NCBI RefSeq assembly: GCF_013122565.1 | Contig: NZ_CP053258.1 | Length of the DNA: 64,000 nucleotides | DNA from: Escherichia coli | Lineage (GTDB): Bacteria > Pseudomonadota > Gammaproteobacteria > Enterobacterales > Enterobacteriaceae | Direction: 5' to 3' (one strand) | Shown here: in pieces, positions 34,201 through 35,079 of the stretch | How the letters are laid out: each line of letters opens with the position of its first letter | Numbering within the stretch: position 1 is the first letter of the stretch | Made by a program: the position numbers

Positions 34201-35079
34201 TGTCCGACACTGTGCTGGTGATGAATAAAGGTCACATCATGCAGATTGGCTCACCGCAGGATCTCTATCGTCAGCCAGCCTCCCGCTTTATGGCAAGTTT
34301 TATGGGCGACGCCAACCTGTTCCCGGCGAACTTTAGCGAAGAGTATGTCGATATCTACGGTTATCGCCTGCCGCGCGCGGCGCATTTCCCGGCGCAAGGT
34401 AGCGGCACCGTCGGCGTTCGCCCGGAAGCCATCACCTTAAGCAATCACGGCGAAGAGAGTCAGCGTTGTGTTATTCGCCATGTCGCCTACATGGGGCCGC
34501 AGTACGAAGTGACCGTAGAGTGGCATGGACAGGAGATTTTATTACAAGTAAACGCCACCCGTTTACAGCCCGATATTGGTGAGCACTATTACCTCGAAAT
34601 CCATCCTTACGGGATGTTTGTTTTAGCGGATGCGGCATAAAAATAGCACATAAACGGTCCCCATCTGTCTTGAGGGACCGTTCACCTGGTTAGGCTTCGG
34701 ACAACAATTATTCTCCAGTGTTATATACTATAGGGGGGTATGCATTGACATATAGCATACCCCCCTATAGTATATTGCATGCAGATGATGAGGTGCGAAA
34801 TGCCCAGTACTCCGGAAGAGAAGAAAAAGGTCCTTACTCGAGTTCGTCGTATTCGAGGGCAGATTGATGCTCTGGAACGGTCGCTGGAGAGTGATGCCGA
34901 ATGCCGTGCCATACTCCAACAGATCGCTGCCGTTCGGGGCGCGGCTAATGGGCTGATGGCAGAAGTGCTTGAAAGCCATATCCGGGAAACGTTTGACCGA
35001 AATGACTGCTACAGCCGCGAAGTCAGCCAATCCGTTGACGACACTATTGAACTGGTTCGTGCCTATCTTAAATAGCTGA

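Follow-up and report, generated by a model that had tools for sequence, protein, structure and literature searches.

Results

An inverted repeat upstream of frmR

What is the role of the long inverted repeat that lies upstream of frmR in this E. coli genome: does it bind the formaldehyde-sensing repressor FrmR, does it fold into a nucleic-acid structure, or does it mark the edge of the neighbouring genomic island? Using a repeat search and a script check of the window (the whole 64-kb stretch of DNA that was analysed), we found that the repeat has 21-nt arms that are 100% complementary and enclose an 11-nt spacer (Table 1); when two mismatches are allowed, it grows to 23/25. The original prediction, a near-perfect 19-bp repeat with a 12-bp spacer, was correct as to the presence and location of the repeat and the existence of a spacer, but not as to the arms, which are longer and perfect, or the length of the spacer. 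The distances given with it were about right: the right arm is separated from the frmR ATG at 34800 by 24 nt (25 nt predicted), and the left arm lies 82 nt (predicted, about 80 bp) beyond the stop codon of the AfuC-like gene, which ends at 34640.

No other perfect inverted repeat of at least 16 nt with a loop of 3-30 nt occurs in the 64-kb window. When the window was shuffled 100 times (first-order Markov), inverted repeats of at least 16 nt never arose, and those of at least 14 nt arose at a mean of 0.02. As the sole repeat of this length in the window, with none in the 100 shuffles, the palindrome is not a chance feature; it is real and non-random.

Table 1. Features of the frm promoter and operon. 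Positions are those of the 64-kb window, except in the last line.
Feature	Position	Strand	Remarks
Conserved 25-bp flank, CGGACAACAATTATTCTCCAGTGTT	34698-34722		between variable-region junction and palindrome
Left (distal) arm, ATATACTATAGGGGGGTATGC	34723-34743		21 nt, 100% complementary to right arm
Distal FrmR site, ATAC-TATAGGGGG-GTAT	34725-34741		type I, CsoR/RcnR family; same as in K-12 Pfrm (Denby 2016)
Spacer, ATTGACATATA	34744-34754	+	11 nt; carries the -35 hexamer TTGACA
-35 hexamer TTGACA (predicted)	34745-34750	+	consensus; promoter scan, 10/12 match
Right (proximal) arm, GCATACCCCCCTATAGTATAT	34755-34775		C at 34756 is A in K-12
Proximal FrmR site, ATAC-CCCCCTATA-GTAT	34757-34773		fills the promoter spacer, overlaps the -10
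-10 option TATAGT	34766-34771	+	15-nt spacer; agrees with the start near 34778 predicted by Denby
-10 option TAGTAT	34768-34773	+	17-nt spacer; the call of the scan
Shine-Dalgarno GAGG	34790-34793	+	6 nt 5' of the frmR ATG; from sequence
frmR	34800-35075	+	91-aa formaldehyde-sensing repressor, CsoR/RcnR (DUF156); NF008464, PF02583, RefSeq annotation of identical sequence
frmA	35110-36219	+	S-(hydroxymethyl)glutathione dehydrogenase; TIGR02818 equivalog, 745 bits; annotation
frmB/fghA	36312-37145	+	S-formylglutathione hydrolase; TIGR02821 equivalog, 398 bits; annotation
Erwinia endophytica sites, ATAC-TGGGATATA-GTAT and ATAC-TGGTGTATA-GTAT	1420-1475 of its locus		flank a -35 as in E. coli

FrmR sites and core promoter within the palindrome

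Matches to ATAC-N9-GTAT occur at two places only in the 64-kb window, 34725-34741 and 34757-34773. Each of these sites is 17 bp long and includes a G6 or C6 run, and the two stand in mirror orientation with their centres 32 bp apart. Both the G6 tract (34733-34738) and the C6 tract (34760-34765) fall within the 3-8 bp of the type I definition for operators of the CsoR/RcnR family. The flanks (ATACTATA-G6-TAT and ATA-C6-TATAGTAT) and the ATAC/GTAT dyad, present in both sites, are likewise of type I, and the cognate regulator is a member of this family, FrmR scoring 82.9 bits with the CsoR/RcnR (DUF156) model PF02583 (cutoff 22.8). The rule behind the original prediction, that repressors of this family recognize G/C tracts with AT-rich inverted repeats on either side, agrees with the type I definition in Denby 2016.

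The promoter scan placed a predicted core promoter inside the palindrome, with the consensus match TTGACA-N17-TAGTAT at 34745-34773. The distal FrmR site ends 3 bp before its -35 hexamer TTGACA. The native promoter reportedly contains two repressor sites of 19 bp, of which one lies upstream of the -35 and the other overlaps the -10. Assignment of the -10 is ambiguous here, with a spacer of either 15 or 17 nt (Table 1). From the description 'centred at -29' given by Denby and the palindrome centre at 34749, the predicted transcription start falls at 34778-34781. Because the -35 lies in the spacer of the palindrome and the -10 in its right arm, two bound tetramers would occlude RNA polymerase. 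A divergent promoter on the minus strand was ruled out: the scan gave no minus-strand match, and no -35-like hexamer was seen by eye in the reverse complement of the spacer, TATATGTCAAT.

The frmR-frmA-frmB operon

FrmR, FrmA and FghA all score above their NCBIfam equivalog cutoffs, which places the palindrome directly upstream of frmR at the head of frmR-frmA-frmB. The identity of frmR, as named in the original prediction, was confirmed by the equivalog NF008464 (188 bits vs. a cutoff of 133); the RcnR model gave 68.6 bits on this FrmR. The protein differs from K-12 FrmR by G31S only. Residue checks showed that it keeps Pro2, Cys35 and His60 together with the basic DNA-binding residues K10, R14, R16 and R17. 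The N-terminal Pro2 is needed for formaldehyde sensing (Denby 2016).

A longer frmR reading frame of 98 aa, from the in-frame ATG at 34779, was passed over in favour of the ATG at 34800. As the upstream ATG lacks a Shine-Dalgarno sequence and is placed no later than the predicted transcription start, we take the ATG at 34800 as the real start of frmR. It has GAGG 6 nt upstream and fits the full-length 91-position FrmR model, the RefSeq annotation and the N-terminal Pro2. In the alignment of two-site promoters from related loci, AGGT is near-invariant.

Identity with the published K-12 promoter

When compared with Pfrm of K-12 (NC_000913), the palindrome was identical at 52/53 positions. Denby et al. 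(2016, Sci Rep 6:38879) had read Pfrm as two type I FrmR sites, ATAC-N9-GTAT, which together make up a large inverted repeat; they assigned the sites by inspection. It follows from this match that the feature was already known and that its first reading as the FrmR operator is supported by published work on the K-12 sequence, with one base of 53 different. The palindrome is the FrmR binding region of the frmRAB promoter that has already been published, an ordinary and known element.

Denby 2016 reported, by bio-layer interferometry, a Kd of ~220 nM for FrmR on the promoter fragment vs. ~3600 nM on an unrelated control promoter, and dissociation of the FrmR-promoter complex by formaldehyde; FrmR repressed transcription in vitro and formaldehyde relieved this repression. 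A constitutive promoter into which the two ATAC-N9-GTAT sites were placed became repressible by FrmR (PMC11127321). According to a passage of a review (PMC8601185, citing Rohlhill 2017), mutagenesis of the native Pfrm found critical repressor sites. Our literature search turned up neither a footprint nor a structure of FrmR with the E. coli operator. In a further construct of PMC11127321, a shortened frmR promoter with both FrmR sites and without the upstream DNA, FrmR repression was reportedly lost. Given this loss, flanking DNA may contribute to repression, and by analogy it may point to DNA wrapping or to flank needs like those of RcnR. Binding, release, in vitro repression and transferability of the sites are thus known from the K-12 literature; this strain, which differs from K-12 at 34756 and at FrmR residue 31, would by analogy behave in the same way.

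Alleles in E. coli

Over 561 nt around the palindrome, the window is 100% identical to E. coli strain PE164. Of 5426 E. coli genomes, 5134 hold the palindrome region, and 3554 of these carry the exact 53-mer. The arms in the window are perfect over 21 nt because of the C at 34756. This base is in the majority in E. coli and is found in other Escherichia species, whereas A, the K-12 form with one mismatch, is a minority. Since the other Escherichia species have C at this position, the K-12 allele is the derived one, and the laboratory Pfrm used in biosensors is accordingly a derived, slightly imperfect palindrome. An apparent rarity of the window allele (295 exact matches with a 67-nt megablast query) proved to be an artefact of flanking polymorphisms, the 53-nt palindrome itself being exact in 3554 genomes.

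Conservation of the sites in other species

For relatives we used an unbiased scan for close FrmR proteins with one genome per species, which gave 80 loci (52-99% identity) from Gamma-, Beta- and Alphaproteobacteria. An exact ATAC-N9-GTAT lies at most 120 nt upstream in 65/80 of these FrmR-like loci, compared with a background of 3 matches in 245,776 nt, the rest of the same 80 loci. Absence of the palindrome from orthologous frmR promoters had been named as evidence against the operator reading; this check did not refute it, as the core motif was present at the 65 loci. In these, the proximal-site match sits 28-57 nt before the start codon.

One site was found at 47/80 loci and two at 18/80. 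The spacing of two-site promoters is 32-35 bp in 17 loci and 23 bp in one, and 17/18 have a -35-like hexamer (TTGAC/TTGAT/TTGCA) between the sites. When aligned, the two-site promoters are invariant in the proximal ATAC, in both GTAT elements and in the TTG of the -35. The two-site layout is limited mainly to the E. coli-type FrmR clade.

The N9 cores vary more. They are perfectly inverted only in E. coli, three other Escherichia genomes and one mobile lineage; they match at 8/9 positions in E. albertii and at 5-8 of 9 in most other two-site loci of enterobacteria and Aeromonas. The Erwinia cores are in direct orientation (7/9 direct vs. 2/9 inverted), and those of Deefgea are unrelated to each other. 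In the promoters of close FrmR relatives, ATAC/GTAT is better conserved than the G6/C6 runs, and the Pantoea FrmR promoter has no G/C run at all. Across these loci the conserved unit is the pair of sites with the -35, not the long palindrome or the G/C run. The long palindrome itself appears dispensable, the direct cores of Erwinia serving as a natural experiment.

Copies of frmR-frmA with FrmR 90-95% identical were also found on 467 plasmids of Klebsiella, Enterobacter, Citrobacter, Salmonella and others; in one inspected plasmid copy an IS1 transposase gene lies just upstream. In this mobile lineage the distal site is ATAC-N10-GTAT. The frm promoters of K. grimontii and a Citrobacter freundii metagenome-assembled genome (MAG) differ at 2 positions, and that of the Citrobacter MAG is identical to the promoter of the marine Maribrevibacterium. 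Promoters this similar in K. grimontii, the Citrobacter MAG and Maribrevibacterium indicate recent horizontal transfer.

The island junction and the upstream neighbourhood

The gene upstream of the palindrome is a co-directional ABC ATPase gene, fbpC/afuC-like, with its stop ending at 34640. In anchored comparisons (K-12, E. albertii, E. whittamii, two Escherichia sp.), similarity to island-free genomes resumed at ~34698 (CGGA), a point 58 bp past the fbpC stop and 25 bp upstream of the palindrome; megablast matches to island-free genomes begin at 34708. The DNA left of 34698 is the fbpC island, and the operator is wholly on the conserved side. The island junction was predicted to lie within a compact regulatory region, and this view holds. 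Adjacency of fbpC and frmR was observed in 450/5415 E. coli genomes (~8%), including O157:H7.

At least four upstream contexts exist in Escherichia, all of which lose similarity 25 bp upstream of the operator: the yaiO side (K-12, E. whittamii), a second shared by E. albertii and one Escherichia sp., a third in the other Escherichia sp., and the fbpC island of the window. This shared point at 34698 suggests, from the sequence comparison, a recurrent recombination boundary.

By homology, the interval between tauA and frmR (~27000-34640) encodes a response regulator, a MASE1 sensor kinase, a uhpC-like receptor and an ABC transporter composed of a binding protein, a permease and FbpC; in K-12 the same interval starts with yaiO-yaiX-yaiP. 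A separate hairpin, ACGGTCCC...GGGACCGT, is located at 34654-34683, 14 nt past the fbpC stop and on the island side of the junction. It has no T-run and may be a weak terminator or an RNA-stability element for the transporter operon.

Alternative readings of the palindrome

Instead of one tetramer on each site, a single FrmR tetramer could bridge both sites with its two faces, so that the -35 region would be wrapped or looped. This arrangement was put forward in Denby 2016 because the centres are far apart, 31 bp by their count (32 here) vs. 19 bp for RcnR, which wraps DNA (as cited there). The lost repression of the truncated promoter without upstream DNA (PMC11127321) is in line with such an arrangement. 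Yet Salmonella Typhimurium FrmR puts two tetramers even on a 33-bp probe of the frmRA operator with a single site (Osman et al. 2015, 2016), and the spacing varies between 32 and 35 bp among relatives. Since most FrmR-like promoters (47/80) have one site, bridging is not a general requirement for repression. We therefore regard bridging in E. coli as unlikely.

The 21-nt symmetry extends beyond the 17-bp cores, and the 25-bp flank is conserved as well. It is rather doubtful that these features reflect something more than two independent repressor sites, or arms kept by template switching. For the former, one possibility is that a single tetramer or a higher-order assembly may bridge or wrap both sites and need upstream DNA; for the latter, perfect arms could be kept by template-switch (quasipalindrome) correction rather than by selection.

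We also considered that the palindrome acts as a nucleic-acid structure, either an RNA hairpin that ends or processes read-through transcripts from fbpC, or a DNA cruciform. When the intergenic region is folded as RNA, the 21-bp stem is the dominant element (-68.6 kcal/mol, z = -7.4), and transcripts reading through from the upstream gene, which is co-directional, would include it. No T-run comes after the stem, however, the next bases being TGCATGCAG, and the terminator scan gave no call, so that a Rho-independent terminator was rejected. Genomes whose upstream genes are entirely different retain the palindrome as well. Nor did pairing stand out in 17 two-site promoters, with 81.4% vs. 79.5% in column shuffles and the covariation score reached by 142/500 shuffles, and the cores are direct in Erwinia and unrelated in Deefgea. 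A search of Rfam 15 gave nothing at the gathering threshold (best score 26.8 bits vs. 90, for a miRNA hairpin model). The frm mRNA itself would be free of the palindrome, as the predicted Pfrm start lies downstream of it. The structural reading is largely refuted and must be considered very improbable.

That the repeat was left behind by island insertion, or served it as a recognition site (att or IS-end-like), and marks the junction can practically be dismissed: although it lies near a boundary where the gene content of strains differs, the repeat is present in island-free genomes, being found in 5134/5426 E. coli genomes when fbpC is beside frmR in only 450, and in other Escherichia species without the island, and the junction is 25 bp to the left, with both arms on the conserved frm side.

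Discussion

Proposed mechanism

With high confidence, we propose that the palindrome serves as operator for the autoregulated frmRAB promoter (Pfrm), in which FrmR bound at two 17-bp sites blocks the core promoter. Its anatomy, its identity with K-12 and its conservation across species are direct observations. The functional units are the two separate sites, not one palindrome, which refines the original prediction. Without formaldehyde, FrmR tetramers on both sites, most likely one tetramer per site, would keep RNA polymerase off the core promoter. The range of site spacing among relatives, 32-35 bp, is hard to reconcile with a strictly phased cooperative complex. Formaldehyde cross-links Pro2 to Cys35 between FrmR subunits (Denby 2016) and so remodels the DNA-binding surface; FrmR would then leave the DNA and frmR, frmA and frmB would be transcribed. 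In this scheme we infer the bases contacted, the stoichiometry on the E. coli operator and the transcription start.

The element, its regulator and the mechanism have been published and are in use for formaldehyde and methanol biosensors. The additions made here are modest: the distribution of alleles, the conservation of ATAC-N9-GTAT across species, the restriction of the two-site layout mainly to one clade and the dispensable long palindrome. For Pfrm engineering they offer a small refinement, the conserved determinants being ATAC-N9-GTAT and the -35 between two sites; the K-12 operator in common use is a minority allele and departs by one mismatch from a perfect palindrome. If an assembly that bridges the sites needs upstream DNA, a junction 25 bp away could alter formaldehyde regulation in the ~8% of E. 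coli strains with fbpC beside frmR.

Comparison with known operators

The closest known system is Pfrm of K-12, which shares with the window the two ATAC-N9-GTAT sites, TTGACA in the spacer and frmR-frmA-frmB downstream. It differs in having A at 34756 where the window has C, in a FrmR without the G31S change, and in its upstream DNA, which is yaiO in K-12 and the fbpC-containing island left of 34698 in the window.

The frmRA operator of Salmonella Typhimurium (frmRAPro) resembles the E. coli operator in its C6 tract within a T/A-rich inverted repeat, in a formaldehyde-sensing FrmR and in the requirement for the flanks, as mutation of one T/A-rich flank abolished binding (Osman et al.). However, it has a single site, and its operon is without frmB and located elsewhere in the genome. 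Salmonella FrmR is only 52% identical to the E. coli protein and is considered polyphyletic with it. The Klebsiella plasmid homologue (53% identity) also has one site, ATAGTATA-G6-TATACTAT.

The rcnR-rcnA operator of E. coli (Iwig and Chivers 2009), as far as it is described where cited in Denby 2016, is bound by a regulator of the same protein family. It differs from the frm operator in its flank sequence, in the distance between centres (19 bp vs. 32 bp), in its effector (Ni/Co vs. formaldehyde) and in its divergent promoter.
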